15,756 nucleotides of DNA from a virus (Duplodnaviria > Heunggongvirae > Uroviricota > Caudoviricetes), in the IMG/VR virus record IMGVR_UViG_2778261543_000003, positions 1 through 15,756 of that record; one strand, given 5' to 3'. Shown piece after piece: positions 1-15,756 of the stretch. Each line of letters opens with the position of its first letter. Position 1 is the first letter of the stretch. The position numbers and the translations under genes are program-made. Under the pieces are notes generated by a model. It searched no databases and had not been told where the DNA came from. It saw only the letters and a list, made by a program, of their open reading frames with translations.

Positions 1-25
1 CACGTTGTTTTTTCGTCAGTGCCAT
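1..25 (-). CDS. 5' end of an ORF running off the window edge (ATG at 25-23)
   Basis: ATG preceded by AAAGGAGAG on the minus strand, overlapping the stop region of the 27-515 gene; only about 8 codons visible. Confidence 0.2.
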
Positions 26-26
26 T

Positions 27-515
27 TCACTCTCCTTTGATGCGAATGCCAGCGGCGCGGATTGCAGCGATGACTTCAGAAACTTTGTATGCCATTACCG
101 TTTGGTAATCATCGTGAAAATCTGTTCGATGAAGCATACTGCTACGTTCCGGGATCAGTATTTCCCGCGCTTCCAGTTCTGCAATGCGCTTCTCTGCGGC
201 TTCCAGCTCAACACGCAGCCTCCCAACCGTAAGCGCAATATCCTCGTTCTCCTGGTCGCGGGATTTGATGTATTGCTGGTTCCTTTCCCGTTCATCCAGT
301 AGTGCCAATGCAATCTTTGGATTAAAGGCAGCAATAAATTCAGCGTTGTTTTTCAGAACGTGTTGCGCAATGGCCTGACTACTTAGTCGGACCTCATAAC
401 CACGTGCGCCACGGTGTGGTTTATATGAGTCCCAGTCTCCCCACGTTGCTTTTTCTGCCGCCTCACGCAGTACCTGATAGTCAATCTTGCTCACTGGTTG
501 CCTCCTTTGCGCCAC
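27..515 (-). CDS. Phage protein with coiled-coil character, possibly Ead/Ea22-like
   Basis: 162-aa ORF in the Ea22-equivalent position distal to the recombination genes; heptad-like [16 protein letters not shown] segment. Family name is from memory only. Confidence 0.55.
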
Positions 516-658
516 ATCGCATTCAGATATTTGTTTTGATTCACTGACGGAAAAGAATTTCTCTTAAGCAATTCCTCTCTCGATGGCATTGGCTTTACGC
601 GTTGGCGAATAATCATTTCTGCCGGAAGAATGCTGGGATTGTATGCAAGTCCTCTCAT
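491..658 (-). CDS. Small hypothetical protein (55 aa, start MRGLAY)
   Basis: ATG at 658 lies 6 nt after GAGGAA; the upstream gene's TGA stop overlaps this RBS. The longer track ORF (to 811) overlaps the upstream gene and is less likely. Confidence 0.35.
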
Positions 659-668
659 GGTAAATTCC

Positions 669-965
669 TCAGTCATTACTGATAGCGCCATAGCGTGAGC
701 GGTAATTACGCAGGCGCGGGTCGATATATTCAGGGAAGTGGGTATATGTGGCTTTGCGGAATGGTCGGATTGATGTCTGGTAAATTCGATCGCGTTCTTC
801 TTTCTCTGCAAGCCATATGCAGTGGCGAAACTCCTTTTCCTCTTTCGTTTCCTGCGGTAGCGACATTATCCGGTCGTAGTTTTTCCTGAATTTATCCAGC
901 ACCTCCGATACGGAATTGCCGGAACAGCGGCGCGCGTCATCCGCACCATACAAAGGCGCTGGCAT
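669..965 (-). CDS. Hypothetical phage protein (98 aa)
   Basis: AGGAG 6 nt upstream of the ATG at 965; tightly packed between the exonuclease and downstream genes on the same strand. Confidence 0.6.
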
Positions 966-981
966 GTTTTTCTCCTGTTGA

Positions 982-1530
982 TTATTTAGCTAACTTTTTC
1001 CAGATCGCTGAAACGTATTTGGCTTGGTGGATGGCATCATCAAGCGCGTTGTGGCGAGTTCCTTTGAATGGCATATCTCGCTTAGGGTTGAATCCTATTA
1101 CCTTTCCAAGCTCGACGATTGTTCTTACGTCGCGGTCATTCCACCACTGCCATGGAACTGGCTGCCCTGTCAGCGAATAACTGTTTCGGAGAATAACGCA
1201 GTCAAATGATGCTCCATTCCCCCAAACCTGAACGAATTTGTGGTTAGCGTTCTTTATGATGAATTCAGATAACCATGAAAGAGCCGTTGAAAGCTCCTGA
1301 GTGTTGCTGGTTAGCGATTTTCTGGCTTCTTCACTCTGTTCCAGCCACCATAAAATCGTTGAAGCGTCAGGACGCGCTCGATATCGCATTGATGATTCAA
1401 GCGAGATATTTACCGAGAACTCTTCTCCTGTTTCTCCGGTATTCGGGTCAAAGAATACCGCCCCAATAGAAATAACTGGCGCGTATGGCCCGTTGCCCAT
1501 TGTTTCAAGGTCAACCATCAAGTGATTCAT
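982..1530 (-). CDS. DEDDh-type 3'-5' exonuclease (DnaQ-like fold)
   Basis: N-terminal MVDLETMG (Exo I D-x-E motif) and C-terminal HNALDDA (Exo III H-x4-D motif); sits directly downstream of SSB. Confidence 0.8.
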   Translation of the reverse strand: MNHLMVDLETMGNGPYAPVISIGAVFFDPNTGETGEEFSVNISLESSMRYRARPDASTILWWLEQSEEARKSLTSNTQELSTALSWLSEFIIKNANHKFVQVWGNGASFDCVILRNSYSLTGQPVPWQWWNDRDVRTIVELGKVIGFNPKRDMPFKGTRHNALDDAIHQAKYVSAIWKKLAK

Positions 1531-1538
1531 GTAAGTCC

Positions 1539-2054
1539 TTAAATTGCGTGAATAGCGTGACGAGGGAAGGGGAGAGTTACTGGTGCAAAGGGGATATCGT
1601 CGTCAAAATCCATAGGTGGTTCGCTGTGATTTCCCTGCTGCTGAGGTTGCTGTCTTTGTTGCTGACCATTATTTCGCTGAGGTGAAGACTGTTCATTGCC
1701 TCCTTGCTTGCCACCAAGCATTTGCATGGTTCCACCAACGCCCACGATGACTTCGGTAGTGAACCGATCCTGTCCGCTTTGATCCTGCCATTTTCTTGTC
1801 CGCAATTTGCCTTCAAGATAAACCTCAGAGCCTTTTCGCAGATATTCGCTGGCAATTTCTGCCAGTTTCCCGCTCATTACCACGCGGTGCCACTCCGTCT
1901 GCTCCTTTTGCTCTCCAGTTTTCTTATCACGCCATTGTTCTGACGTAGCAACGGTAAGGTTTGCAAATGCCGTTCCTGATGGTGAATATCTGATTTCTGG
2001 ATCATGCCCAAGGCGACCAATAATGATCACCTTATTTACGCCTCTGCTTGCCAT
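1539..2054 (-). CDS. ssb: Single-stranded DNA-binding protein with extended C-terminus
   Basis: OB-fold N-terminus closely resembling E. coli SSB ([33 protein letters not shown]), Gly/Gln-rich linker and acidic tip [11 protein letters not shown], followed by 15 extra residues ([15 protein letters not shown]). Confidence 0.9.
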
Positions 2055-2762
2055 TTATGCCGCCTGTTTTAGTTCGTTAACTCTGATGTTCATTACCTGA
2101 ACGCATTTAGCCTGCGCCTCCTCGTTGCCAGCCATTAATTGCCAGTCACGCTGATAACGCTCGATGAGTTTTTTCTTGTCAGTTTCTGTTGACGCATAAT
2201 CGCTGAAGTCTTTCAGGATTTGTTCGCAGTCAACCGATGGAGATTTCTGGTTGGTATTTTCTGGTGATGGTTTGTTATCTGATGCTGGGATTGCCCATCC
2301 CGGCAGCGATGGAGGGAGCCAGTAAAATCCTGTTCCATCCTTGAGTTTTGCCCTGTGCCATCCCTGCTTTTTATCGAGAGATGTTTGTGCGAAACCTTCC
2401 TCAAGGTTATACAGATACCGACCGATTCCCCATTGAACGGCAGCACGCTTCATTGCACCGGAACGACCACCTTTGACGGCTTCTACCTGCGTGTTTTCAG
2501 CAGCATCCCATTTGGTTACCCATTCGGAATCAATCTTGATTGATATGCCGCATTCAACTCCGCCGTTGTTGGGAATATCGCGGTATTCATTGCGCCATCC
2601 TGCTTTGCCGCAAACATCGTCCAGGCGTTTCATGATTGCCCGGTTCGTGGCATAAGCCAGCACCATAGCCCACACTTTGCCATCGCGTGTTTTACCGCTT
2701 TGCTGTATTCGCCATTCGATATCTTCAGGGCTGAATGGCTCATCGAATTTATTCAAATCCAT
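2055..2762 (-). CDS. Rad52-family single-strand annealing protein (Sak-like recombinase)
   Basis: Motif GGRSGAMKRAAVQWGIGRYLYNL resembles the conserved Rad52/Sak hairpin region; gene is adjacent to SSB and an exonuclease; stop TAA abuts the ssb ATG. Confidence 0.65.
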   Translation of the reverse strand: MDLNKFDEPFSPEDIEWRIQQSGKTRDGKVWAMVLAYATNRAIMKRLDDVCGKAGWRNEYRDIPNNGGVECGISIKIDSEWVTKWDAAENTQVEAVKGGRSGAMKRAAVQWGIGRYLYNLEEGFAQTSLDKKQGWHRAKLKDGTGFYWLPPSLPGWAIPASDNKPSPENTNQKSPSVDCEQILKDFSDYASTETDKKKLIERYQRDWQLMAGNEEAQAKCVQVMNIRVNELKQAA

Positions 2763-2770
2763 AATTCACC

Positions 2771-2941
2771 TCAGAATGGACACGGCCCAAGGAAATAACG
2801 CTGATTTAATACTTCGACTCGGGACAAATTAAGGCATACCCGCATTCCTTCGCGGTCGCCATTATGGCGATACCAGAGAGCTTTCTGCGTGTACATGCGT
2901 CTCTGTAACTTGCTCTCCTTCACTGTGGTTGCAAGTGACAT
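2771..2941 (-). CDS. Small hypothetical protein (56 aa, MSLATTVKESK...)
   Basis: Not in the ORF track (under 60 aa). AAGGAGATATTC-ATG RBS; its stop overlaps the RBS of the Rad52-like gene. Confidence 0.35.
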   Translation of the reverse strand: MSLATTVKESKLQRRMYTQKALWYRHNGDREGMRVCLNLSRVEVLNQRYFLGPCPF

Positions 2942-3020
2942 GAATATCTCCTTCGTTACCGATTAATTCTTTCATCTGACGAATGAATTCTTCGTCTGAC
3001 CAGTTATCTGTAAAACTCAT
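2862..3020 (-). CDS. Small hypothetical protein (52 aa, MSFTDNWSDEEFIRQMKELIGNEGD...)
   Basis: ATGA stop/start overlap with the upstream small ORF; overlaps the 2771-2941 ORF in another frame, so at most one of the two may be complete. Confidence 0.25.
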   Translation of the reverse strand: MSFTDNWSDEEFIRQMKELIGNEGDIHVTCNHSEGEQVTETHVHAESSLVSP

Positions 3021-3169
3021 TTCCTGCGATACCATGGAAGGTTGATAGCTGATTTCATCGCTTTATTTGCTTCAAGCCACATTTTTGAATCACCAATAAA
3101 TCTGGCTATTACTGCTTTGTTCTGTGCAGCACGAAGCATCTGGTGATTGATGGCTATTTCATTGCGCAT
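3017..3169 (-). CDS. Small hypothetical protein (50 aa, MRNEIAINHQMLRAAQNKAVIARFIGDSKMW...)
   Basis: GGAGG 6 nt upstream of the ATG at 3169; occupies the kil-equivalent position just upstream of the recombination genes (positional inference only). Confidence 0.4.
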   Translation of the reverse strand: MRNEIAINHQMLRAAQNKAVIARFIGDSKMWLEANKAMKSAINLPWYRRK

Positions 3170-3288
3170 AACGCCTCCAGTTGTTTCTTTGCTGCTCTGA
3201 TTAATTGTTTAACTCGGCGTGATAATTCAGATTCGTGCGGGTAGAAAGCGGACATGACGCCGCTACCCGCGAGCTGAAAGTGCATCAT
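3154..3288 (-). CDS. Small hypothetical protein (44 aa, MMHFQLAGSGVMSAFYPHESELSRR...)
   Basis: TAAGGAG 7 nt upstream of ATGATG at 3288; the track's longer form (start 3363) has no RBS and would abut the upstream stop. Confidence 0.45.
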   Translation of the reverse strand: MMHFQLAGSGVMSAFYPHESELSRRVKQLIRAAKKQLEALCAMK

Positions 3289-3363
3289 GGGTAACTCCTT
3301 ATATTTGATTGCATAACGAAAACGCCTCGAGTGAAGCGTTATTGGTATGCGGTAAAGCCGCAC

Positions 3364-3732
3364 TCAGGCGGCCTTGATCGTCATATCATCTGAATCAAAT
3401 ATTCCTGATGTATCGATATCGGTAATTTTTATTCCTTCACTACCATCCATTGGAGGCCATCCTTCCTGACCATTTCCATCATTCCAGTCGAACTCACACA
3501 CAACACCATATGCATTTAAGTCGCTTGAAATTGCTATAAGCAGAGCATGTTGCGCCAGCATGATTAATACAGCATTTAATACAGAGCCGTGTTTATTTAG
3601 TCGGTATTCAGAGTCTGACCAGAAATTATTAATCTGGTGAAGTTTTTCCTCTGTCATTACGTCATGGTCGATTTCAATTTCTATTGATGCTTTCCAGTCG
3701 TAATCAATGATGTATTTTTTGATGTTTGACAT
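3364..3732 (-). CDS. Strongly acidic hypothetical protein (122 aa)
   Basis: Clean ORF with GAGGAA upstream; by my count about 22 Asp/Glu against about 8 Lys/Arg; lies between the pL-proximal cassette and the recombination module. Confidence 0.7.
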   Translation of the reverse strand: MSNIKKYIIDYDWKASIEIEIDHDVMTEEKLHQINNFWSDSEYRLNKHGSVLNAVLIMLAQHALLIAISSDLNAYGVVCEFDWNDGNGQEGWPPMDGSEGIKITDIDTSGIFDSDDMTIKAA

Positions 3733-3750
3733 CTATTCATTTCCTCATAG

Positions 3751-3778
3751 ATAAAAAATCGCCCTCACATTGGAGGGC
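3751..3778 (-). terminator. Intrinsic terminator (minus strand) between the AT-rich cassette and the acidic-protein gene
   Basis: Plus-strand ataaaaaatc-GCCCTC-acattg-GAGGGC; on the minus strand a 6-bp GC stem followed by a run of 6 U. Confidence 0.6.
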
Positions 3779-3884
3779 AAAGAAGATTTCCAATAATCAG
3801 AACAAGTCGGCTCCTGTTTAGTTACGAGCGACATTGCTCCGTGTATTCACTCGTTGGAATGAATGCACAGTGCTTATTCGCAGT

Positions 3885-4211
3885 CTACATAATCATTCCG
3901 GTTATTATTACCATTTCAATATCACTATCTTTCATAATGATTGGAGTTGAGTTATCAACTTTACTTTTACTCCATTTTCCTGCATCAGTTTTTACCGCTC
4001 CACAATAAGAAAGCCAATCATTATCACAATGTTCTGGATCGCTGATTCTGACAAGAACACGTGATAGTGCTTTTTCGATACTTTCATCACAATTAGCATT
4101 TGTGTAATTGCCGTGAGACAATTTTAAATCGTTAACTTCATCTTCATTGGCATCAAAAATATAGATTTCAGTCGACTCTGGAACATTTTCATAAACCATT
4201 AAAACTTTCAT
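3885..4211 (-). CDS. Acidic hypothetical protein (108 aa, start MKVLMVYENVPE); second gene of AT-rich cassette
   Basis: Start chosen at the ATG at 4211 (GGGGTAAAA-ATG) because the track's longer start at 4331 overlaps the upstream gene; region is visibly AT-rich. Confidence 0.5.
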   Translation of the reverse strand: MKVLMVYENVPESTEIYIFDANEDEVNDLKLSHGNYTNANCDESIEKALSRVLVRISDPEHCDNDWLSYCGAVKTDAGKWSKSKVDNSTPIIMKDSDIEMVIITGMIM

Positions 4212-4257
4212 TTTTACCCCATATTGTTTATGCCAAAAATAAAGTCGGCCATGCGGC

Positions 4258-4728
4258 CTAGTAGAATACCCAATTTTCTGCTTCTTGGTTGTGTCCAAAG
4301 TTATATTCAATATCTGGTGTTGATGTATCAATATTCTTCATCCCATCAACAAGAGTTGATACAACAGCCAAATCTTGTTTGATTCTCATTAAATGGTATT
4401 TCTTCCGGCGCAATAAACTTTCAATGGCAAGTTTCTTCGTTGGGAATGCAAAAGATCTTTCTGCATTTTTTGCTACTTTCTTAATTGCATATCTATTTCT
4501 CCTTTGTTTCCATTCCTGTAACCACTGATTTGGTGCTGGTTTAAAACCAACAACCCAATGCGCAGGAACCAACCATGCATAATGCTCTGTCTGATGAAAA
4601 GCTATATATTGAAGTGCGAATATTTTTATCCCATCTTCTTCAACTGTCGCCTGGAATCTCCAGAAAACAGGCATTCCATCATGTTCAGTTTCTGATTCAG
4701 GAAAAGGTACGCTCCATGATTTTGTCAT
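4258..4728 (-). CDS. Hypothetical protein (156 aa) translationally coupled to N
   Basis: N stop TGA, then GGTGAGAT, then ATG at 4728; AT-rich relative to N; no family recognised. Confidence 0.7.
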   Translation of the reverse strand: MTKSWSVPFPESETEHDGMPVFWRFQATVEEDGIKIFALQYIAFHQTEHYAWLVPAHWVVGFKPAPNQWLQEWKQRRNRYAIKKVAKNAERSFAFPTKKLAIESLLRRKKYHLMRIKQDLAVVSTLVDGMKNIDTSTPDIEYNFGHNQEAENWVFY

Positions 4729-4736
4729 ATCTCACC

Positions 4737-5036
4737 TCAAATAAGTGGTTTGCTGCCTAATTTCATTTTCTGGCGACCAACACAAGTCACACCCATTTCA
4801 CTGCGTGGCTTGCGGTAGTAAATACGATTCTGTTTACTCTCGACTTCTTCTGCCTTCTTGCAGCGAAGGCTTCCGAGTGATGCTGCTTTGTCTGCTCTGA
4901 CGCAACCAGAGAGCTTTAGCGCATTTTTTCGCGCCAGTCGCTGCTCTTGCATTGCCTGTTCACGTTGAGCCTGTCTGCGTGCTCTGCGGCGATTTCTGGC
5001 GTTATCGTCAGCCAGATATGTAATGACTACTGTCAT
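4737..5036 (-). CDS. N: Antitermination protein N
   Basis: Arg-rich N-terminal motif (DDNARNRRRARRQAQREQ) and C-terminus YYRKPRSEMGVTCVGRQKMKLGSKPLI closely matching the lambda N C-terminus as I recall it; GGAGG 7 nt upstream of the ATG at 5036; nutL lies upstream. Confidence 0.75.
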   Translation of the reverse strand: MTVVITYLADDNARNRRRARRQAQREQAMQEQRLARKNALKLSGCVRADKAASLGSLRCKKAEEVESKQNRIYYRKPRSEMGVTCVGRQKMKLGSKPLI

Positions 5037-5076
5037 GTTGACCTCCGGGAAGGTACACATCCTTGTGTGTCGATGA

Positions 5077-5196
5077 TTATTTGTTTTTGCGTTCCCACAT
5101 CCAGTCATCTACTTCAGACCAGATAGTGAAACCGAAGCAGATGGCGAATGTGGTAACTAAACCACCGAGAATTGGGTTGGTCATGATGTCTAACAT
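5077..5196 (-). CDS. Small predicted membrane peptide (39 aa, MLDIMTNPILGGLVTTFAICFGFTIWSEVDDWMWERKNK) in the N leader
   Basis: Not in the ORF track. GAGGAA 6 nt upstream of ATG; one hydrophobic helix plus a charged Trp-rich tail; lies between the leader inverted repeat and N. Confidence 0.35.
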   Translation of the reverse strand: MLDIMTNPILGGLVTTFAICFGFTIWSEVDDWMWERKNK

Positions 5197-5367
5197 TTTC
5201 TGTTCCTCAGATGATTAGCTTTGGTGGTGTGGTAGGTGGGAGACCCATTTCGACCCGCTTCGTCCGACTTCAATTCGGCAATAGTCCCGCAGGCCTCGCC
5301 GCTTTACGTGCGACATATTCCCGTCCATGAACCCTTCACCACACCCCAAAGCCAACTACTCTTTGGT

Positions 5368-5408
5368 TCCCGCATTTCGGCGGGACAATCCCATCAATGT
5401 TAAAGAGC
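5368..5408 (-). promoter_or_regulatory. nutL (boxA GCTCTTTAA plus boxB hairpin)
   Basis: Minus-strand GGCTCTTTAACA ... TCCCGC-cgaaau-GCGGGA; the same arrangement occurs on the plus strand at 7082-7125; boxA matches the lambda CGCTCTTA consensus. Confidence 0.6.
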
Positions 5409-5454
5409 CTGCCAATCTGTTCCGTTTGGCTACCAGCGTCCTGCTGATGGCTTA

Positions 5455-5496
5455 AAGATAACTTAGGTTATAGGTGTGGTCAATAACCTAATTTAT
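5455..5496 (-). promoter_or_regulatory. pL promoter with operators OL1/OL2
   Basis: Minus-strand TTGACC (5483-5478), 17-nt spacer, TATCTT (5460-5455); operator ATAACTTAGGTTAT at 5458-5471 overlaps the -10 and ATAACCTAATTTAT at 5483-5496 overlaps the -35. Confidence 0.55.
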
Positions 5497-5660
5497 ATTT
5501 TGTGGTAAATAAGTTATAAGTGATGGATAACAAAGGTATTTTATTTTTGTAAATGTTGCTGATTGATTGGTGTTTGAGGGCTTGCGTGCGGGGTGAAGGT
5601 GTTACCTTTGGCTTGATGCTTGTCTATGATGATGATGGGTGATTGGGTGGTGAACGGCAG

Positions 5661-5695
5661 GAAAAGAAAACCCGGCGCTGAGGCCGGGTGTTTTT
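5661..5695 (-). terminator. Intrinsic terminator ending the cI operon (potentially bidirectional)
   Basis: CCCGGC-gctgag-GCCGGG stem-loop flanked by a T-run on the plus strand and an A-run (U-run on the minus strand); starts right after the stop of the 5694-5990 gene. Confidence 0.7.
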
Positions 5696-5990
5696 AGTCT
5701 TTTCTTTTGCTTAGCATTTCGTCGATTTCTAAGTCAATACGATATTGATCTATTGCTTTTCTCTCGTTTGGGGTTGGTATTTTATATTGTTCAATTAGAT
5801 CTGTTGTGTATTTTATTTCATCTAATGTGATTTTTATATCAGAGAGAATCTCTTTTATATCAATTAGATGCTCTTCTTCTTTTGCGCGATTAGAGCTATG
5901 TTCAATCATTTGAGATAGCTTTTTACTAATGCTTAGCAAAACAAAAAGAATGATGATCAAAACAACAACAAAAACTATCAGAAATTCCAT
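5694..5990 (-). CDS. AT-rich single-pass membrane protein with coiled-coil-like C-terminal region, cotranscribed with cI
   Basis: GGAGGGATA-ATG RBS 40 nt downstream of the cI stop; hydrophobic N-terminus EFLIVFVVVLIIILFVLLSI, then a charged, periodic Ile/Leu segment; followed by a terminator. Confidence 0.7.
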   Translation of the reverse strand: MEFLIVFVVVLIIILFVLLSISKKLSQMIEHSSNRAKEEEHLIDIKEILSDIKITLDEIKYTTDLIEQYKIPTPNERKAIDQYRIDLEIDEMLSKRKD

Positions 5991-6030
5991 TATCCCTCCG
6001 CACTTCCGTAAGTCTTCTTCTGATTATCGG

Positions 6031-6738
6031 TTACCAACTATGAGACGACCAGAATACTCTGCCAATAATCCTTACGGTTTCATGAAATTCATCTCTATCC
6101 ATTACTTCATCCGGGTACTCTTCGCGATTTATTGATCTGATTATCACCGATGTAGGGGTGGCGATTAATGTTTTTACTCGTAACAAATCAGACTGGCAAA
6201 TAGCGTAGGTTTTACCATCTCTGATTGTGGTATCTTGCGTGTTAACACCAACAACATCGCCATCGTGAAGCGTTGGTTCCATGCTTTGCCCTACAACCCT
6301 AACTAGCTTGGCTGATCTTTCAGATACTCCCATCTTTTTCAGATAGTGCTTTCTGAAAACCAAAGAGAACTCCGATGATTCCTCTAGCTCGCAGCTACCG
6401 CTTCCAGCTGAAAGCGAAACGTTAAGAAGAGGCAACGCAACAAACTCGTCATCGTTTCTTTTAATGTCTTCCCATACCACAGCTTTTAAAGATGACTCAC
6501 GGACATTGGATGGTTCTTCATGTGCACCATCCCTCATTTCACCAATACCAGAACTAAGCCATTCAGGGCGCACTTTTAAAGCATTGGCTAATTCAACCAT
6601 CTTGCGAGATCCGTTTGTTTTACCGGACGACATCTTCTGTATGGCTGGCTGAGATATTCCAACCATGTCAGCAAGCTGTGATTGTGATACCCCTGCCGAG
6701 CTCATGGCTGCATTTAGTCTTTCTGCGAATGTTTTCAT
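6031..6738 (-). CDS. cI: cI-type repressor (HTH plus S24 LexA-like peptidase domain)
   Basis: HTH SQSQLADMVGISQPAIQKM; S24 signature GQSMEPTLHDGDVVGV and a downstream Lys (LRVKTL). Start taken at MKTF (6738) because the longer track start at 6768 would overlap an operator. Confidence 0.85.
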   Translation of the reverse strand: MKTFAERLNAAMSSAGVSQSQLADMVGISQPAIQKMSSGKTNGSRKMVELANALKVRPEWLSSGIGEMRDGAHEEPSNVRESSLKAVVWEDIKRNDDEFVALPLLNVSLSAGSGSCELEESSEFSLVFRKHYLKKMGVSERSAKLVRVVGQSMEPTLHDGDVVGVNTQDTTIRDGKTYAICQSDLLRVKTLIATPTSVIIRSINREEYPDEVMDRDEFHETVRIIGRVFWSSHSW

Positions 6739-6750
6739 ACCCACAAATCT

Positions 6751-6816
6751 ATAACTACGGTTATCCAAAGTAAAATAACAAAGGTTATTGCTATTTTTTA
6801 TAACTTGAGTTATCTT
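6751..6816 (+). promoter_or_regulatory. OR operator triplet with pR (and divergent pRM) region
   Basis: ATAACTACGGTTAT (6751-6764), ATAACAAAGGTTAT (6775-6788) and ATAACTTGAGTTAT (6800-6813) at 24-25 bp spacing; candidate pR -35 TTGCTA (6788-6793) and -10 TATCTT (6811-6816). Confidence 0.6.
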
Positions 6817-6849
6817 TGGTTATAAGTAATGACCACAAGAGGTATGCTC

Positions 6850-7074
6850 ATGAATTTAGTAATTCAACGAGCCTTGAAAATTGTCGGTAGCCAAAAGCGC
6901 CTTGCCGACAAGTGTGGTGTAACGCAGCCAGCAGTACACAAATGGCTGAAAGGCGGGTTGGTCTCTCCAGAGAAAGTTACCGCCATCGTTAACGCCACTG
7001 GAGGGCAGATCAAGGCTTACGAAATTCGCCCCGATTTGCCACACCTGTTTCCAAAACCGAATCAGGCAGCATAA
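6850..7074 (+). CDS. cro: Cro-like HTH regulator (YdaS-like)
   Basis: First rightward gene after OR; AAGAGG 7 nt upstream of the ATG at 6850; HTH SQKRLADKCGVTQPAVHKWLK; C-terminal YEIRPDLPHLFP. Confidence 0.65.
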   Translation: MNLVIQRALKIVGSQKRLADKCGVTQPAVHKWLKGGLVSPEKVTAIVNATGGQIKAYEIRPDLPHLFPKPNQAA

Positions 7075-7081
7075 GTAACAC

Positions 7082-7125
7082 CGCTCTTTAACAGTCATGG
7101 TCCTCATTCCCGCCGAAATGCGGGA
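7082..7125 (+). promoter_or_regulatory. nutR (boxA CGCTCTTTA plus boxB hairpin)
   Basis: CGCTCTTTAACA then TTCCCGC-cgaaau-GCGGGAA between cro and cII; inverted counterpart of nutL. Confidence 0.6.
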
Positions 7126-7183
7126 ATGCAACGCGCATAAGTTGATGCGCATAACTTCTTATTAGTTAAGGAAATACTTACAT

Positions 7184-7462
7184 ATGCAACTTACAAGTAC
7201 TCGCAAGAAAGCGAATGCAATTACAAGCAACATCCTGAATCGAATTGCTGTACGTGGTCAGCGAAAGGTTGCCGACGCGTTAGGGATTAATGAATCGCAA
7301 ATTTCGCGATGGAAAGACAGCTTCATCCCAAAAATGGGAATGCTTCTGGCTGTTCTTGAATGGGGTGTTGAAGACGAGGAGTTGGCGGAACTGGCTAAGA
7401 AAGTAGCCAGAATGCTGACAAAAGAAAAAGCCCCGAAGAACGGCGAATTCTTCGAGGCCTGA
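7184..7462 (+). CDS. cII: Transcriptional activator cII
   Basis: Strong resemblance to lambda cII as I recall it (ILNRIA, SQISRWK, IPKMGMLLAVLEWGV). Confidence 0.85.
   Translation: MQLTSTRKKANAITSNILNRIAVRGQRKVADALGINESQISRWKDSFIPKMGMLLAVLEWGVEDEELAELAKKVARMLTKEKAPKNGEFFEA
7418..7454 (-). terminator. Minus-strand intrinsic terminator inside the cII 3' end (candidate OOP-like antisense RNA terminator)
   Basis: 7-bp stem CGAAGAA/TTCTTCG (7434-7440 with 7448-7454) followed on the minus strand by GGGCUUUUUCUUUU. Confidence 0.45.
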
Positions 7463-7496
7463 TGTAGAAAGACTGGATCAATCCACAGGAGTAATT

Positions 7497-7658
7497 ATGA
7501 CAAAACGTCGTAAGAAATACCAGGAAAAAGAAGAGATTCGACACCCTGATTCACCTGAGGGATTAGTGGTAGCCGCAGCAAATAACAGGGCGTTCGCAGA
7601 GCGCCTTGTTGGTGTTTACAGACTAGCCAAAGCAGGAGTGAAACATGGGCGTCGTTAA
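7497..7658 (+). CDS. Small basic hypothetical protein (53 aa, MTKRRKKYQEKEEIRHPDSPEG...)
   Basis: AGGAG 5 nt upstream of ATG; its 3' end overlaps the O start by 14 nt; not in the ORF track. Confidence 0.35.
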   Translation: MTKRRKKYQEKEEIRHPDSPEGLVVAAANNRAFAERLVGVYRLAKAGVKHGRR

Positions 7659-8466
7659 GTTAGCTGATTACAGGCCTCAACTGGAGGTCGTGGAGCATCG
7701 CGTGGCAGATACCGAAGATGGTTTCATGCGCGTTGCTAACGAGATTACCGACAGTCTGCTGATGGCTGATTTAACCGTCCGGCAGTTGAAGGTGATGCTC
7801 GCTATCATGCGCAAGACATACGGATTCAATAAGCCGATGGATCGACTCACAAACACGCAGATAGCAGCCATGACAGGTATTCATCACACTCATGTTTGCG
7901 CTGCCAAGCGCCAGCTTATTGAGCGTAAATTCCTCATTGCTGATGGCGTGAAAATCGGAGTGAACAAGGTGGTTTCTCAGTGGATTAGCCAGGACAGCTT
8001 AACATTAGCTAAAACAGCTAATAAAACATTAGCCAAGTCGGCTAATGGGTATAAGCCAAGTCAGCTAAACACAAAAGACAATATACAAAAGACAATAAAT
8101 ACAAATACCCCCTTACCCCCTAACGGGGGCGGCGATGGGCAGGTTAAACCTGAACGTCGCAAGGCAGAACGAATCGACTACGAATCCTTCCTGAACGCCT
8201 ACAACACCGAAGTCGGTGACAGACTTCCGCATGCTGTTGCGGTCAACGAGAAACGCAAACGCCGCCTGAAGAAAATCATCCCGCAACTGAAAACGCCAAA
8301 CGTGGACGGTTTCAGAGCGTATGTCAGGGCGTTTGTGCATCAGGCCAAGCCGTTTTACTTCGGAGACAACGACACGGGCTGGACGGCCGATTTTGATTAC
8401 CTGCTGAGGGAAGATTCGTTAACGGGAGTACGGGAAGGGAAGTTTGCAGACAGGGGGATTGCATGA
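7645..8466 (+). CDS. O: Replication initiation protein O
   Basis: N-terminal domain resembles lambda O ([28 protein letters not shown]); AGGAG RBS; iteron-like repeats inside the linker; ATGA overlap with the downstream helicase. Confidence 0.8.
7990..8105 (+). repeat. Candidate replication origin: iteron-like repeats plus AT-rich tract inside O
   Basis: AGCCAAGTCGGCTAA (8031-8045) and AGCCAAGTCAGCTAA (8054-8068), further AGCTAA motifs at about 10-bp phasing, then an A-rich tract with ACAAAAGACAATA repeated. Confidence 0.45.
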
Positions 8467-9839
8467 GACAGGATATCGAAGCGAGCGTTATCGGTGGCCT
8501 GCTGATTGGTGGATTAACACCAACCGCCAGCGACGTTCTGGCAACGCTGGAGCCGGAAGCGTTTTCAATTCCGCTCTACCGGAAAGCCTTCGAGGTTATC
8601 CGCAAGCAGGCGAGAAACAGAAACCTAATCGACGCGCTGATGGTTGCAGAGGCGTGCGGAGAGGAGCATTTCACGTCAATCCTGATGACCAGCAAGAACT
8701 GCCCGAGTGCCGCAAACCTGAAGGGATATGCTGGAATGGTCGCGGATAACTATCACCGCCGTCTGGTGCTGGAAATCATGGACGAAATGCGTGAACCAAT
8801 TCAGAGCGGAACCATCGACGCATCGAGTCAGGCGATGGACGAGCTGGTAAAGCGTCTTTCAGCCATCAGAAAGCCACGTGACGAGGTAAAACCTGTACGG
8901 TTAGGGGAAATCATCACCGACTACACTGACACGCTTGACAGGCGTCTGAGGAACGGAGAAGAGTCAGATACCCTGAAGACCGGAATCGAAGAACTTGACG
9001 CTATCACCGGAGGGATGAACGCTGAAGACCTGGTGATTATCGCCGCTCGTCCTGGTATGGGGAAAACCGAACTGGCGCTAAAGATTGCCGAAGGTGTTGC
9101 AAGCCGCGTTATTCCTGGTTCTGACGTCCGGCGCGGAGTATTGATTTTCTCGATGGAAATGAGCGCATTGCAGATTGCAGAGCGAAGCATTGCCAACGCC
9201 GGGAGGATGTCGGTTAGCGTACTGCGAAATCCTGCATCGATGGATGACGAGGGCTGGGCACGTGTTGCTAACGGCATGAGTCAGCTTGCAGATTTGGATG
9301 TATGGGTAGTCGATGCCTCGCGGTTATCGGTCGAAGAAATACGCTCAATCGCAGAACGGCACAAACAGGAAAATCCAAACCTGTCACTCATCATGGCGGA
9401 TTATCTTGGCCTGATTGAGAAGCCGAAAGCAGATCGCAACGACCTTGCAATTGCTCACATCTCCGGAAGCCTGAAGGCGATGGCGAAAGACCTGAAAACG
9501 CCTGTTATCTCCCTGAGTCAGCTTTCGCGCGATGTTGAGAAGCGACCAAACAAACGCCCGACAAACGCAGATTTGCGTGATTCAGGAAGCATTGAGCAGG
9601 ACGCAGACTCAATCATCATGCTCTATCGGGAAGCGGTATATGACGAGAACAGTAGCGCCGCGCCATTTGCTGAAATCATTGTGACAAAAAACCGTTTTGG
9701 CTCACTTGGTACGGTTTACCAGCGGTTCTGCAACGGACACTTTGTTGCATGTGACCAGGATGAAGCCAGACAGATTTGCACAGCATCAAATGCACCTGCT
9801 GCGCGTGGCAGACGATATGCACAAGGGGCTGACGTATGA
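8463..9839 (+). CDS. DnaB-family replicative DNA helicase
   Basis: DnaB-like N-terminal domain followed by a RecA-type ATPase core with Walker [10 protein letters not shown]; sits directly after O. Confidence 0.9.
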
Positions 9840-9916
9840 CCATCTACATCACTGAGCTGATAGCAGGCCTGCTGGTAATCGCAGGCCTTTTTATTTGGGG
9901 GAGAGGGAAGTCATGA
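9836..9916 (+). CDS. Micro-ORF for a 26-aa hydrophobic peptide ([26 protein letters not shown])
   Basis: ATGA overlaps at both ends (with the helicase stop and the next gene start); could equally be chance. Confidence 0.25.
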
Positions 9917-10095
9917 ATCTGGACGAGCAAGATGCACAAACTATTAGCTCATACATAAGGGCATCAAGACCAGATTACAAAGGTCCGGTATTCGTAGATT
10001 TATCTCGCCTTGAGGAGATTTACATGTGGGAAGCAAAGCTACGTACGCATCTTTTTATTCGTAAGATGACTAGCAACATTACAAAACCAATGTAA
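9913..10095 (+). CDS. Hypothetical protein (60 aa, start MNLDEQ)
   Basis: GGGGGAGAGGGAAG upstream of the internal ATG at 9913; nin-region position. Confidence 0.5.
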   Translation: MNLDEQDAQTISSYIRASRPDYKGPVFVDLSRLEEIYMWEAKLRTHLFIRKMTSNITKPM

Positions 10096-10109
10096 CTGGA
10101 GAGGTGAAT

Positions 10110-10325
10110 ATGAGCACACTCGCAGACCTTATTCATGCCGATATGGCGGAAGATGGAGCAAGGCGTAATAGGTACTGGAAATCATCAAGCCTTCCAGTTT
10201 GTGAAAGATTCAACCACAGGCCAAAACCAAAACGTAGCCGACGAGACAAAGTGTTGAAAAAACTCATGCAAATTAACATGGCTGGTTTTGTCAGATTCGT
10301 GAGTGAAACGACTAACGGGGATTGA
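10110..10325 (+). CDS. Hypothetical basic protein (71 aa)
   Basis: GGAGAGG RBS upstream; same-strand tight packing. Confidence 0.5.
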   Translation: MSTLADLIHADMAEDGARRNRYWKSSSLPVCERFNHRPKPKRSRRDKVLKKLMQINMAGFVRFVSETTNGD

Positions 10326-10326
10326 T

Positions 10327-10593
10327 ATGGACGAATCAAGAAAGCAGTTTGAAGAATGGTTTGAAAATTACACCGGATGTGATCCTAAAAATAAAATATA
10401 CGCCAATATGGTTGAGATGTATTGGCAAGCGTGGCAGGCATCGCGAGCAGCTATCGAGATTGAGTGTCCTGGAAAAAGAGAGCGTGAGGCATTTTCTACC
10501 GATTTCGAGGATGGGGTCACATTTGGTTATAACGACGCAATTAGTGAATGCGAAGGACGGATTCGCGCTGCTGGAGTCAAAGTGAAGGAGTGA
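10327..10593 (+). CDS. Hypothetical protein (88 aa, start MDESRKQFEEW)
   Basis: Start 1 nt after the previous stop; the alternative frame 10322-10585 looks less protein-like. Confidence 0.5.
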   Translation: MDESRKQFEEWFENYTGCDPKNKIYANMVEMYWQAWQASRAAIEIECPGKREREAFSTDFEDGVTFGYNDAISECEGRIRAAGVKVKE

Positions 10594-10595
10594 CG

Positions 10596-11006
10596 ATGAA
10601 GCAAACAATCTTCCTCCGAACTAAGCAACAACAGCAAGCCGCAATCAACGCCATCCTCGCAACACCACTCGATAAAGACAAGCCAGTCACCATCCGCATT
10701 ACTGACTACAAGCGCAACCTTGACCAGAACGCAAAATTTCACGCGATGGTCGCAGATATCGCTAGGCAAGTTCAGTGGCGCGATAAATGGTTAAAACCAG
10801 AACAATGGAAGGTTTTGTTGATCAGCGGTCATGCAGTGGCAACAAAGCAGGAAGCTGATGTTTTGCCCGGGCTTGAAGGCGAATACGTCAACATTCGCGA
10901 AAGCAGCGCGCAGATGAGTGTGAAGCGTATGGCAAGCCTGATTGAGTACACAACAGCCTGGGCTATTGGTCAGGGTGTCAGATTTACTGACAGGAGGTAT
11001 GAATGA
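10596..11006 (+). CDS. ninB: NinB-family recombination protein (Orf-like)
   Basis: AAGGAG RBS upstream of MKQTIF; pattern LDQN.K ... W..KW...E.WK resembles lambda NinB as recalled; followed by NinE/F/G. Confidence 0.75.
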
Positions 11007-11185
11007 GACGACAGCGACGAAGTTTCACCGACATAATCTGCGAAAACTGCAAATACCTTCCAACGAAACGCTCCAGAAATAAACCCAAGCCAATCCCAAA
11101 AGAATCTGACGTAAAAACCTTCAATTACACGGCTCACCTGTGGGATATCCGGTGGCTAAGACATCGTGCGAGGAAAACAAGGTGA
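11003..11185 (+). CDS. ninE: NinE
   Basis: 60-aa protein [23 protein letters not shown]... matching my recollection of lambda NinE; ATGA overlap with the ninB stop. Confidence 0.65.
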
Positions 11186-11352
11186 TTGACCAAAATCGAA
11201 GTTACGAACAAGAAAGTGTCGAGCGAGCTTTAACGTGCGCTAACTGCGGTCAGAAGCTGCATGTGCTGGAAGTTCACGTGTGTGAGCACTGCTGTGCAGA
11301 ATTGATGAGCGATCCGAATAGCTCAATGCACGAGGAAGAAGACGATGGCTAA
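11182..11352 (+). CDS. ninF: NinF (GTG start)
   Basis: [37 protein letters not shown] matches lambda NinF as recalled; GTGA overlap with the ninE stop. Confidence 0.6.
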
Positions 11353-11950
11353 ACCAGCTCGAAGGAAATGCAAAATATGCAAGGAATGGTTTCACCCGGC
11401 ATTCTCAAATCAGTGGTGGTGCTGCCCGGAACACGGAACTCAATTAGCACTCGAACGACGAAGCAAAGAACGCGAAAAAGCGGAAAAAGCAGCAGAGAAG
11501 AAACGACGACGAGAGGAGCAGAAACAGAAAGATAAACTGAAGATTCGAAAACTCGCCTTAAAGCCCCGCAGTTACTGGATTAAACAAGCCCAACAAGCCG
11601 TAAACGCCTTCATCAGAGAAAGAGACCGCGACTTACCATGTATCTCGTGCGGAACGCTCACGTCTGCTCAGTGGGATGCCGGACATTACCGGACAACTGC
11701 TGCGGCACCTCAACTCCGGTTTGATGAGCGCAATATTCACAAGCAATGCGTGGTATGCAACCAGTACAAAAGCGGAAACCTCGTTCCGTATCGTGTCGAA
11801 CTGATTAATCGCATCGGGCAGGAAGCAGTAGAGGAAATCGAATCAAACCATAGCCGCCATCGCTGGACTGTCGAAGAGTGCAAGGCGATCAAGGCAGAGT
11901 ACCAACAGAAACTCAAAGACCTGCGAAACAGCAGAAGTGAGGCCGCATGA
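11345..11950 (+). CDS. ninG: NinG (Rap) recombination protein
   Basis: Near-identity over long stretches to lambda NinG as recalled ([43 protein letters not shown]). Confidence 0.8.
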
Positions 11951-11997
11951 CGTTCTCAGTAAAAACCATTCCAGATCACAAGGGAGAAGCCGCATGA
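11947..11997 (+). pseudogene. ninH: ninH remnant (16 codons, [16 protein letters not shown]) bridging ninG and Q
   Basis: First 10 residues match the lambda NinH start as recalled, then the frame ends after 6 more codons; ATGA overlaps with both ninG and Q. Confidence 0.4.
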
Positions 11998-12512
11998 GCA
12001 TAAGAGAACTAAACCTCACCAAAGAACAGCATGAGTGGCTGAATGGCTGGCTTGAACTGTGGGGCGCATGGGTTTATTCAGGTCGTCTGGAAAAGCGCAT
12101 GAGCAGCGTAATAGCGAAGTTCATGGAGAGCGTAGAGCCGGGAAGAGTTATGACAAGGCCAATGTGCAATGATGATGATGGAATGTTGATTTCTCAGGTC
12201 GTCGATTCCGTCATGTGCATTGACAAGAAAGCCTTTGGCATCCTCCTCAGCTACTACGCTCATGGTTCATCTAAGCGAGCAATTGCATCCTACTATCACG
12301 CGACTGCAAAGCCACGCAAGATGTGTGGACGTGGTGGCGAGGGATGGAGAAAACCTTCACTGGCAACCTGTAGAAACGAAATTGACGACATCCTGAAAGC
12401 GTCGTTATTTGTTTTGTACCAGCCAATGCAAAATGCTTTCAAAATGCGCAAACGTGTTGAGAAAGTTAAGCATGTTGCTGTTAAAAGCCTTGACATGCAA
12501 TTATCCATTTAG
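11994..12512 (+). CDS. Q: Late-gene antiterminator Q-like protein (non-lambda Q type)
   Basis: Occupies the Q position immediately after the nin genes and before the pR'-like promoter, tRNAs and lysis genes; contains Cys/His-rich segments; family assignment from memory only. Confidence 0.6.
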   Translation: MSIRELNLTKEQHEWLNGWLELWGAWVYSGRLEKRMSSVIAKFMESVEPGRVMTRPMCNDDDGMLISQVVDSVMCIDKKAFGILLSYYAHGSSKRAIASYYHATAKPRKMCGRGGEGWRKPSLATCRNEIDDILKASLFVLYQPMQNAFKMRKRVEKVKHVAVKSLDMQLSI

Positions 12513-12519
12513 CCATAAT
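12490..12519 (+). promoter_or_regulatory. Candidate late promoter pR' (overlapping the Q 3' end)
   Basis: Perfect -35 TTGACA (12490-12495), 18-nt spacer, -10 CATAAT (12514-12519). Confidence 0.45.
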
Positions 12520-12533
12520 TAGAAGGTAAGCTG

Positions 12534-12571
12534 CCGTTAGTGACTCTTAAGTTGCAACGGTGGCTTTTTTT
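12534..12571 (+). terminator. Possible tR'-like terminator (non-canonical)
   Basis: CCGTT ... AACGG stem with a large 17-nt loop followed by a run of 7 T; structure is weak. Confidence 0.3.
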
Positions 12572-12575
12572 ATTT

Positions 12576-12650
12576 GGGTCAGTCGTATAAAGGTCATTAC
12601 GGAAGGCTGTTAACCTTCTTATCGTGGTTCGAGTCAACGCTGTCCCGCCA
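12576..12650 (+). tRNA. tRNA-Asn-like (anticodon GUU), possibly degenerate
   Basis: Cloverleaf foldable by hand: anticodon arm GAAGG-CTGTTAA-CCTTC, T-loop TTCGAGT, 3' CCA; but one acceptor mismatch, one T-stem mismatch and an odd D-arm. Confidence 0.4.
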
Positions 12651-12655
12651 AATAT

Positions 12656-12731
12656 GCTGGTTTAGCTCCAATGGTAGAGCAGTCGCCTTGTAAGCGAATG
12701 GGTAGCGGTTCAAGTCCGTTAACCAGCACCA
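12656..12731 (+). tRNA. tRNA-Thr (anticodon UGU)
   Basis: 76 nt; perfect 7-bp acceptor stem GCTGGTT/AACCAGC, D-stem GCTC/GAGC with GG in loop, anticodon loop CTTGTAA, T-loop TTCAAGT, 3' ACCA. Confidence 0.75.
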
Positions 12732-12974
12732 TAACTGAGCCGTAGCCACTGGCTATCCTGAATTCATCAGTGATAGTTATGCTGCGGCCTTCTGCACATG
12801 ACCTTCGTGAAAGCGGGTGGCAAGAGGCTGCGCTAACAACCTCCTGCCGTTTTGCCCGTGCATATCGGTCACGAACAAATCTGATTACTAAACACAGTAT
12901 CCTGGATTTGTTCTATCAGTAATCGACTTTATTCCTAACTAAATAGAGCAAATCCCCTTATTTGGGGGTAAGAC

Positions 12975-13298
12975 ATGAAGATGCCAGAAAAACATGACCT
13001 GTTAGCCGCCATTCTCGCGGCAAAGGAACAAGGCATCGGGGCAATCCTTGCGTTTGCAATGGCGTACCTTCGCGGCAGATATAATGGCGGTGCGTTTACA
13101 AAAACAGTAATCGACGCAACGATGTGCGCCATTATCGCCTGGTTCATTCGTGACCTTCTCGACTTCGCCGGACTAAGTAGCAATCTCGCTTATATAACGA
13201 GCGTGTTCATCGGCTACATCGGTACTGACTCGATTGGTTCGCTTATCAAACGCTTCGCTGCTAAAAAAGCCGGAGTAGAAGATGGTGGAAATCAATAA
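12975..13298 (+). CDS. S: Holin (lambda S type, dual-start MKM)
   Basis: Essentially the lambda S sequence as recalled ([39 protein letters not shown]...). Confidence 0.9.
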
Positions 13299-13758
13299 TC
13301 AACGTAAGGCGTTCCTCGATATGCTGGCGTGGTCAGAGGGAACTGATAACGGACGACAGAAAACCAGAAATCATGGTTATGACGTCATTGTTGGCGGAGA
13401 GCTATTCACTGATTACTCCGATCACCCTCGCAAACTTGTCACGCTAAACCCCAAACTCAAATCAACAGCCGCCGGACGTTACCAGCTTCTTTCCCGTTGG
13501 TGGGATGCCTATCGTAAGCAGCTTGGCCTGAAAGATTTCTCTCCGAAAAGCCAGGACGCTGTGGCATTGCAGCAGATTAAAGAGCGTGGTGCTTTACCGA
13601 TGATTGATCGCGGTGATATCCGTCAGGCAATCGACCGCTGCAGCAATATCTGGGCTTCACTGCCGGGTGCTGGTTATGGCCAGTTCGAGCATAAGGCTGA
13701 CAGCCTGATTGCAAAATTCAAAGAGGCTGGCGGAGCGGTCAGAGAGATTGAGGTATGA
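13282..13758 (+). CDS. R: Endolysin (lambda R-type lytic transglycosylase)
   Basis: Matches lambda R as recalled ([39 protein letters not shown]). Confidence 0.9.
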
Positions 13759-14222
13759 GCAGAGTAACCGCGATTATCTCCGCTCTGGTTATCTGCATCA
13801 TCGTCTGTCTGTCATGGGCTGTTAATCATTACCGTGATAACGCCATCGCCTACAAAGAGCAGCGCGATAACAAAGCCAGTGAACTGGAGAAGGCGAACGC
13901 GATCATTACTGACATGCATCAGCGTCAGCGTGATGTTGCTGCGCTCGATGCTAAATACACGAAGGAGTTAGCTGATGCGAAAGCTGAAAATGATGCTCTT
14001 CGGCGCAAGCTTGATAATGGTGGCAGGGTGCTCGTCAAAGGAAAATGCCCTGTGCCATCCTCAGCCGAAGCCTCCAGCGCCTCCGGCATGGGCAATGATG
14101 CCACCGTCGAACTCTCTCCAGTTGCTGGACGAAACGTTCTCGGTATCCGGGGCGGAATTATCCGCGACCAAACAGCACTGAGAACGCTTCAGGGATACAT
14201 AAGGACGCAATGCCTTCGATGA
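13755..14222 (+). CDS. Rz: Rz (inner-membrane spanin)
   Basis: N-terminal half matches lambda Rz as recalled ([31 protein letters not shown]...); C-terminal half diverges. Confidence 0.85.
13975..14181 (+). CDS. Rz1: Rz1 (outer-membrane lipoprotein spanin) embedded in Rz in the +1 frame
   Basis: Signal peptide ending in a lipobox-like VAGCSS followed by a Pro-rich segment ([11 protein letters not shown]), as in lambda Rz1. Confidence 0.7.
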
Positions 14223-14362
14223 TAGCGATAATTTTACTCATCATCCTTCACATCTGGCTCTGTAGACAGGGTGGTGATCACTTCTGGAGTGAATCCAGAT
14301 TAAACATCTCATTGCTGATGCTTGATATTGAGCATCTGGCGCGCGGTAAGGGGCTGCGTTGA
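14210..14362 (+). CDS. Small hydrophobic ORF (50 aa, [22 protein letters not shown]...) overlapping the Rz stop
   Basis: AAGGA 5 nt upstream of ATG; hydrophobic N-terminus; not in the ORF track. Confidence 0.3.
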
Positions 14363-14396
14363 GATAAGAGCCAGTCATCACAAACACCAGGATTTA

Positions 14397-14420
14397 GCCT
14401 CGCATTTGCGGGGCTTTTTT
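14397..14420 (+). terminator. Intrinsic terminator downstream of the lysis cassette
   Basis: GCCTCGC-attt-GCGGGGC stem (with one G-U pair) followed by TTTTTT. Confidence 0.6.
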
Positions 14421-14568
14421 ACATCTGCAGTAAACCGCGCATCGCAGCGCGTAACAATCCCGAGTCTTTCAGAAAGCTGAGCCTGAGAACTGCCGTATAT
14501 GGTGGCGACCATCTCGGGGACGGCTTTTCTGTGCGAACAGGCTCATCTTTCTAAAAGGTAAAGACGCA

Positions 14569-15111: not shown

Positions 15112-15330
15112 CGGCAGTACCGCGAAACAACCCAAGCCAGTAAGTGGGGAAATAACACTGGCAGCCACTGAAAGATGAACCTCCAGCCTTATGGCAAAAA
15201 AGATTCTTTGTGGTGGCGGACTGATGGAAAGACATCGGATAGAATAAAACAGTGGCTAGGGTAGCTCCCGAAAAGCGGAATCGTCACCGCCAGCCACTGA
15301 ATCTATGACGAACAACTAGACGAGGTTGAT

Positions 15331-15573
15331 ATGAGTGAAATTGATAAAATAATAAATGGTACATGTAACTTTCAATCAATGCCGCCAGGTAGTTATGTAA
15401 AACAATGTAGTGAAATAGTTAATGGTCAGCTTGTAATGTCAAATGCAGGACGTGGAGTTTCTACGGATGAAAAAAAATCAATAAATGAAGCCCTATTAAG
15501 CATCAATGTTTTTGACTTGTTTCGCCCATCTTGGGTTATTTTGCAAAATAGTAGTCAATTCCCACATTATTGA
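15331..15573 (+). CDS. AT-rich hypothetical protein (80 aa)
   Basis: GAGG 6 nt upstream of ATG; markedly AT-rich by eye; no family recognised. Confidence 0.45.
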   Translation: MSEIDKIINGTCNFQSMPPGSYVKQCSEIVNGQLVMSNAGRGVSTDEKKSINEALLSINVFDLFRPSWVILQNSSQFPHY

Positions 15574-15756
15574 TAAATTAATTAATAAATTGGTCGCTAA
15601 GTCGGCCTTTTTTATTGCCATCACAAAAGCCATTCCTTACTGAGTGGCTTTGATAATGGCTTATACCCTACACGGGATAACTTAACTGATATCCCTTTTA
15701 AGGAAGGTGCGAATAAGCAGGTCATTTCTTCCCAAGCTGACTCGCTGATTAAAATT

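Follow-up and report, generated by a model that had tools for sequence, protein, structure and literature searches.

A conserved small gene for a predicted membrane microprotein in the N leader of some lambdoid phages

Some lambdoid phages have a 39-codon open reading frame (ORF) in their N leader that is very probably a real gene for a membrane peptide; in all lineages found, purifying selection acts on its amino-acid sequence. We present here an analysis of this small ORF in a 15,756-nucleotide stretch of virus DNA (IMG/VR record IMGVR_UViG_2778261543_000003, positions 1 to 15,756), referred to below as the window. The encoded peptide belongs to PHROG 7482, a family that already exists in PHROGs as uncharacterised. 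What is new is that the lambdoid copies are genuine selected genes missed by RefSeq annotation and that they occupy an N-leader position that is untranslated in lambda. As an overall picture, we think it fairly probable that the product is an early single-pass inner-membrane microprotein that entered some lambdoid N leaders as a cassette and acts in trans. A literature search found no paper on the peptide motifs, on PHROG 7482, or on any ORF or tRNA-like RNA lying within the N leader.

The features of the region are listed in Table 1. The initial annotation had reported a 39-codon ORF with a GAGGAA motif at 6-nt spacing, and its coordinates and quoted peptide were reproduced exactly. On the minus strand the ATG of the ORF lies at 5196..5194 and its TAA at 5079..5077, and the ATG of N follows 40 nt past the stop codon. 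By alignment with lambda, the pL transcript starts near 5448 (ATCAGCAGG), and the small ORF is its first cistron. A consensus scan of 4700..5800, in which weak promoters could be missed, returned pL alone for the minus strand and nothing promoter-like for the plus strand; no minus-strand terminator was found between pL and N. Both the earlier placement of the ORF between nutL and N and its description as the first product of the pL transcript are thus correct. Nor is the ORF arranged as a moron, since the stretch from pL to the ORF lacks a promoter and no coding-strand terminator comes after the ORF. On the plus strand, a hairpin resembling a terminator (5052..5071, with a T-rich tail) was examined and rejected; it corresponds to Lys/Asn codons of the ORF tail and is unconserved in relatives.

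Table 1. Coordinates of the early leader and neighboring features in the window
Feature	Coordinates	Strand	Details
LexA/CI-type repressor	6768..6031	minus	Peptidase_S24 + HTH
pL promoter, TTGACC-17-TATCTT	5483..5455	minus	promoter scan and alignment with lambda pL
nutL	5408..5369	minus	sequence; aligns with lambda nutL
boxA, GCTCTTTAAC	5408..5399	minus	
boxB hairpin, CCCGC-CGAAAT-GCGGG	5384..5369	minus	
N-leader stem-loop	5356..5214	minus	homologous to the lambda structured N leader
Small-ORF Shine-Dalgarno, GAGGAA	5208..5203	minus	6 nt between motif and ATG
Small ORF	5196..5077	minus	39 codons + stop; peptide MLDIMTNPILGGLVTTFAICFGFTIWSEVDDWMWERKNK; PHROG 7482 member
Short hairpin, ACACA-AGGA-UGUGU core	5071..5052	minus	between small ORF and N; part of inserted cassette
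Antiterminator gene N, 99 aa, ATG 5036	5046..4737 (including Shine-Dalgarno)	minus	phrog_271 "anti-termination protein N-like", E = 2.6e-35

The N gene has its own Shine-Dalgarno, GGAGG, at 5046..5042. Its product is a weak match to Pfam N_peptide, and an identical 99-aa product is annotated by RefSeq in locus L001. On the other side of pL, a 98-aa ORF with an N-terminal hydrophobic segment (5990..5694, minus) lies between the repressor gene and the promoter, at the position of rexAB in lambda, with a terminator downstream of it at 5689..5670. This ORF matches phrog_18389 (unknown function; E = 1e-61), and its only PADLOC match is a weak ZorB/MotB-like one (E = 0.017). Elsewhere in the window, tandem tRNA genes for Asn-GTT and Thr-TGT are found in the late region (12576..12731, plus), and 15249..15311 (plus) matches the Rfam int-alpA sRNA family with 42 bits, relative to a gathering score of 35.8.

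The small ORF directly follows a leader stem-loop of the lambda type. In the window this element has a 19-bp basal stem with one bulged A, topped by a lineage-specific apical domain, and folds at -61.5 kcal/mol (z = -3.5; 0 of 200 shuffles were as good). In an alignment with lambda, its ends correspond to GGCTTTGGGGTGTG...CACACCACCAAAGCTAA, which are the opposite strands of the lambda basal stem, and compensatory variants of the stem are seen in relatives. The element therefore combines the position, the homology on both strands, and the stable long stem of a lambda-type N leader. A tRNA-like or RNase P acceptor-end reading of the conserved "...CACACCACCA" was dropped as a general explanation because the lambda alignment shows that those bases are the 3′ strand of the N-leader basal stem.

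The apex of the N-leader stem is hypervariable among otherwise near-identical lambdoid prophages. At least 10 unrelated apical versions, from ~30 to 215 nt long, were found on the same basal stem in a comparison of the window (5214..5356, minus) with loci L002 (2194..2274), L003, L005, L013, L015, and L035 to L042. Compensatory pairs in the upper stem include GGUGUGGU/ACCACACC, GAUUUGAU/AUCAAAUC, GGAGUGGU/ACCACUCC, and GGUGACG/CGUCACC, and Rfam gave no family for the apical versions tested (window, L003, and L005). One version is tRNA-shaped, with D and T arms and an acceptor-like stem and with the anticodon loop replaced by an extended stem. It is present in L002 (2194..2274; a prophage of E. 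coli AR_0058), L024, L027, L028, and Salmonella phage P6 (L042, 701..806). In L002, it matches the Rfam tRNA family with 38 bits and is called "tRNA-OTHER" by PGAP and "tRNA-Pro" by ARAGORN. Located between nutL and N, this version is rare, being present in 2 of 5426 E. coli genomes; some of the loci that have it contain the small ORF and others do not. It may represent another route of leader processing, through an RNase P-type site.

The surrounding 4 kb is overlapped by 36 ORFs of at least 30 aa, so the size of the small ORF alone is not significant; it is its conservation that marks it as more than a chance frame. Alleles were collected with a search pattern back-translated from the tail WMWERKNK, by which relatives with a different tail are under-sampled, and more divergent members were added through protein searches, after which their DNA was retrieved. 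Complete 39-codon homologues in the same context are carried by 23 of the 23 IMG/VR contigs that match the tail pattern. Among five metagenome matches to the pattern, four are complete ORFs in the same context and the fifth is a chance match. In total, 15 distinct DNA alleles were obtained, their sources being E. coli prophages, viral contigs, and metagenomes. Each contains the ATG, 39 codons, and the stop and keeps a Shine-Dalgarno, with GGAG or GAGG ahead of the ATG in all lineages examined. Variable sites in these alleles are distributed 14/9/29 over the three codon positions, a third-position excess. The median pairwise pN/pS in the ORF frame is 0.31, calculated over codons 2-31 with the eight tail codons left out, as these are fixed by the search pattern. 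Shifting the sense frame raises this value to 1.15 or 1.89, and antisense frames give 0.52-1.23. Between the window and the divergent lambdoid locus L013, there are 11 synonymous and 5 non-synonymous differences. Conservation in related prophages was among the checks that the initial annotation had proposed for this ORF, with loss or disruption in close relatives as one outcome that would count against it; the frame proved intact throughout the allele set and selected at the protein level. Two database proteins, P0006 and P0007, have only the first 22-24 residues in common with the peptide. They represent a low-coverage contig and a deletion prophage that is also without N, and for this reason they are not counted as specific inactivations of the small ORF.

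The same data bear on whether the ORF is translated at all. It lies within an RNA leader known as highly structured, and a hairpin is predicted inside the ORF of the window allele, so its sequence might be kept as leader RNA, untranslated and with an incidental frame. We consider this extremely improbable. The internal hairpin is lost in other alleles and its fold is marginal (z = -2.1), whereas the Shine-Dalgarno, ATG, and stop are kept in all of them. The third-position excess and a pN/pS that is low in frame and above 1 in the other sense frames are likewise those of a coding sequence, and homologues at the protein level are found in unrelated genomic contexts.

The gene is rare. Among 5426 complete E. 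coli genomes, 31 have an exact or near-exact copy, in no case annotated, and an over-extended 61-aa version is deposited at NCBI as an Escherichia albertii "hypothetical protein." The lysogen E. coli SCU-308 (NZ_CP053281) has a locus identical to that of the window. The leader region itself is matched in ~1275 E. coli genomes, only 31 of which have the small ORF. Two scans of 185,579 species-representative genomes (one per bacterial species) with tail patterns gave no match. Being rare and absent from most relatives, the small ORF is clearly dispensable.

The small ORF and the short hairpin behind it are an optional cassette, because relatives with the same N and without the ORF have the N Shine-Dalgarno right after the leader stem. 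In lambda and in the same-N relatives vB_EcoP-611R6 and Stx1a_10051, this Shine-Dalgarno lies within about a dozen bases of the stem, which agrees with the earlier remark that lambda has no gene there. In the window, the Shine-Dalgarno of the small ORF takes that spot, and N is displaced ~160 nt downstream, behind the ORF and the hairpin. A 7-nt repeat, AATCATC, is found at both edges of the small ORF (5216..5210 and 5078..5072). The short hairpin is thermodynamically weak in the window (z = 0.07) and reaches z = -2.2 in relatives; its position is conserved, with the variants GCACA/UGUGC, GACACACA/UGUGUGUC, and UGCGCC/GGCGCA, and it is absent from relatives without the small ORF.

Relatives have other boxB types, matched to other N proteins, and the small ORF is found with at least four N/boxB specificities: the type of the window (boxB CCCGC-CGAAAT-GCGGG), the P22 type (GCGCUGACAAAGCGC with the arginine-rich motif GNAKTRRHERRRK), and two further types. 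It is also accompanied by many different apical leader domains. Phage CUS-3 (L036), with the same N, has a different insertion of ~200 nt at the place of the small ORF in the window; because of this other insertion, the junction between the leader stem and the N Shine-Dalgarno looks like a recurrent insertion point. In L013 (~3560..3720), a divergent lambdoid contig from IMG/VR, the leader stem and the small ORF are separated by an additional short ORF (MKIDKEKFQDAKEVAKQAV...), which gives this leader two small cistrons before N.

The peptide is predicted to be a one-helix membrane microprotein with a 19-residue hydrophobic core. Hydropathy is highest in residues 9-27 (Kyte-Doolittle peak of 1.74 for the best 19-residue window), and AlphaFold2, supplied with a small family alignment, models a short N-terminal turn followed by a continuous helix over residues 8-38 with a mean pLDDT of 85. 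The single hydrophobic helix and charged Trp-rich tail described in the initial annotation are therefore recovered, the tail being acidic, aromatic, and basic. Substitutions within the helix replace one hydrophobic residue with another. Near-invariant positions form an N-terminal T-N-P-I-L-G-G and a tail W-S-x-V/I-x-D-W-M-W-E/D-R-K-N-K, and Cys20, the sole Cys, is replaced by Gly in many alleles. Basic residues are confined to the extreme C-terminus (RKNK). By the positive-inside rule only, the N-terminus would probably face outward and the C-terminus inward. Scans of the peptide against Pfam, NCBIfam, and PADLOC gave nothing meaningful (the sole Pfam match was TrbC, E = 0.064), and a profile search against solved structures gave only an incidental match to a transmembrane segment.

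The initial annotation had likened this architecture to the small membrane toxins Ldr and Hok. Read as family membership, the comparison fails. Neither the peptide nor its variants matched Pfam Ldr_toxin (PF13940) at E values up to 10, in a search in which the LdrD control scored 86 bits (E = 1.7e-24); the peptide likewise had no match to Pfam Hok (PF01848), a family marked by conserved Cys residues and a periplasmic tail. BLASTP against LdrD aligned only 12 residues around PIL-G, with 17 bits. The layout of an Ldr or Hok locus, with its own promoter and an overlapping antisense RNA gene, was not seen in the consensus scan of 4700..5800. The peptide might still act as a membrane-damaging toxin like Ldr, Hok, or TisB, depolarising or permeabilising the inner membrane early in infection, and its size, single hydrophobic helix, aromatic belt, basic C-terminus, and short PIL-G-hydrophobic match to LdrD would fit. 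We nevertheless judge this quite unlikely: no other toxin model and no PADLOC entry was matched, neither an own promoter nor an antisense promoter-like site was detected, and the conserved acidic patch S-E-V-D-D beside the helix is not an Ldr or Hok feature. Moreover, in three phage groups the peptide would be the first product of an early promoter, and a collapse of the membrane potential so early would harm the replication of the phage itself.

The reading as an early membrane microprotein of a phage-borne family draws on the profile comparisons. The peptide of the window matches phrog_7482 with 87.5 bits (E = 8.1e-25), its residues 1-39 covering profile positions 1-39 of 46, and a divergent lambdoid allele scores 68 bits. 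The same profile is matched by two proteins of lytic phages, namely gp86 of Shigella phage Sf18 (annotated as "putative membrane protein"; Mooglevirus, Ounavirinae) with 102.5 bits and gp34 of Escherichia phage Av-05 (Avunavirus, Vequintavirinae) with 85.3 bits. Alignment of the lambdoid and lytic subfamilies with hhalign gave a probability of 97.3% (E = 2.2e-11 over 37 columns). The lytic homologues were also found by tblastn at 32-35% identity, which alone reached only E = 0.02. A profile search against 1.84 billion representative proteins gave only four clusters at E < 1e-10, which makes this a very narrow family.

In both Sf18 (L031, 1440..1700) and Av-05 (L033, 1430..1680), the homologue is the first ORF directly after a near-consensus promoter, TTGCAA-17-TATAGT. 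Sf18, Av-05, and the window have no gene neighbours in common, and no conserved partner gene was found in the lytic and lambdoid contexts; as neighbours are not shared, this is a stand-alone gene. A hairpin follows the lytic homologues, mirroring the ORF-plus-hairpin arrangement of the lambdoid loci. The Sf18 hairpin is GGGGAGG-GAGA-CCUCCCC (z = -3.1).

The proposed course of events begins with entry of the ORF and its downstream hairpin into the N leader of some lambdoid phages, between the leader stem-loop and the ribosome-binding site of N. Synthesis of the peptide would take place in the first minutes that follow infection or induction, and the ORF would be silent in the lysogen because pL is repressed. 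Once made, the peptide would probably insert in the inner membrane with its short N-terminus outside and its RKNK C-terminus in the cytoplasm. There it may act in trans on an enterobacterial inner-membrane component, in host take-over, exclusion, or counter-defence. In lambda, the N/Nus complex at nutL represses N translation across the structured, RNase III-sensitive leader, an effect that RNase III modulates (PMC5725501). The small ORF is the likeliest recipient of this nutL/RNase III control because its ribosome-binding site sits where that of lambda N does, and its translation is probably subject to N/Nus-nutL repression and RNase III relief, as for lambda N.

The position of the ORF also suggests a role in cis, and the initial annotation had raised a regulatory leader peptide for N. 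On this account, translation of the ORF would mainly set the amount of N, with the peptide secondary; it may open the intercistronic hairpin, deliver ribosomes to the N Shine-Dalgarno, or relay nutL/N/RNase III control. The geometry would allow some effect on N in cis, as the ORF ends 37-52 nt before the N ATG in every lambdoid locus with a small hairpin between, its Shine-Dalgarno has the stem-adjacent position of that of lambda N, and N autoregulation is expected to reach the small ORF first (PMC5725501). In addition, one low-energy fold of the window pairs CCUUC with the GGAGG of N. As the main role, however, this is improbable in our assessment. Homologues exist in lytic phages with unrelated downstream genes and without N, and selection acts on the amino-acid sequence from one end of the peptide to the other, a constraint not required of an ORF that serves only as a spacer. 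The N gene has an identical strong Shine-Dalgarno of its own, which lies outside the short hairpin and is not consistently sequestered, since the anti-Shine-Dalgarno pairing is unconserved among lineages. The gap of 40 nt is also too long for classical termination-reinitiation coupling.

Taken on sequence grounds, the comparison argues for a trans-acting early membrane microprotein over a leader peptide for N, because the homologues are the first early ORFs in the lytic Mooglevirus and Avunavirus. We would extend this more tentatively, and as a rather unlikely proposal in its full form, to an immediate-early take-over or counter-defence microprotein common to lambdoid and lytic (FelixO1-like and rV5-like) enterobacterial phages that hits a specific inner-membrane host component. 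In the lambdoid phages it would have been inserted right where N/Nus-nutL repression of translation and its RNase III relief operate, and the antitermination complex itself would control how much of it is made and, indirectly, how much N.

These results add a real and consistently unannotated gene to the best-studied regulatory region of the lambdoid phages. They indicate that the "untranslated" N leader can carry a cistron exactly where the translation of lambda N is controlled. That three unrelated groups of enterobacterial phages would make the same tiny protein first points to a function in the first minutes of infection, and the small ORF offers a cheap, well-defined target for small-protein genetics.

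One of the closest known systems is the lambda N leader itself. The pL start, boxA, and both strands of the basal stem align with lambda, and the window shares the long stem (z = -3.5). The window differs in having the small ORF where the Shine-Dalgarno and ATG of lambda N directly follow the stem, and the apical domain of its stem is unrelated to that of lambda. Lambda CIII and Kil, two small proteins of the early phage program, target host proteases or division, and CIII is an amphipathic cytoplasmic peptide. Like these and like small single-pass membrane-protein regulators, the product of the small ORF is a short peptide, and the likeness extends to the pL operon, the probable early expression, and the proposed action on host components; there is no sequence relationship between them and the small peptide. 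Ldr (PF13940) and Hok/Gef proteins resemble it in length (35-50 aa), in the one transmembrane helix, and in the aromatic and basic C-terminal end, but the small ORF has no profile match to them or detected promoter of its own and is part of a phage early operon. The homologous relatives are the lytic members of PHROG 7482, which share the N-terminal M-x-(D/E)-(I/V)-x-x-N-P-I-L-x-G, one hydrophobic helix, the acidic patch (S/G)-E-(V/I)-(D/S)-D, aromatic/hydrophobic positions, and a basic C-terminus. The lytic proteins are longer (45-46 aa) and have a longer basic tail; at the Trp positions of the lambdoid peptides they carry F, K, or L, and the two versions are only 34-38% identical. Lambdoid and lytic members are all the first ORF after an early promoter, the lytic version following a promoter of its own and the lambdoid version being embedded in the nutL-N leader.
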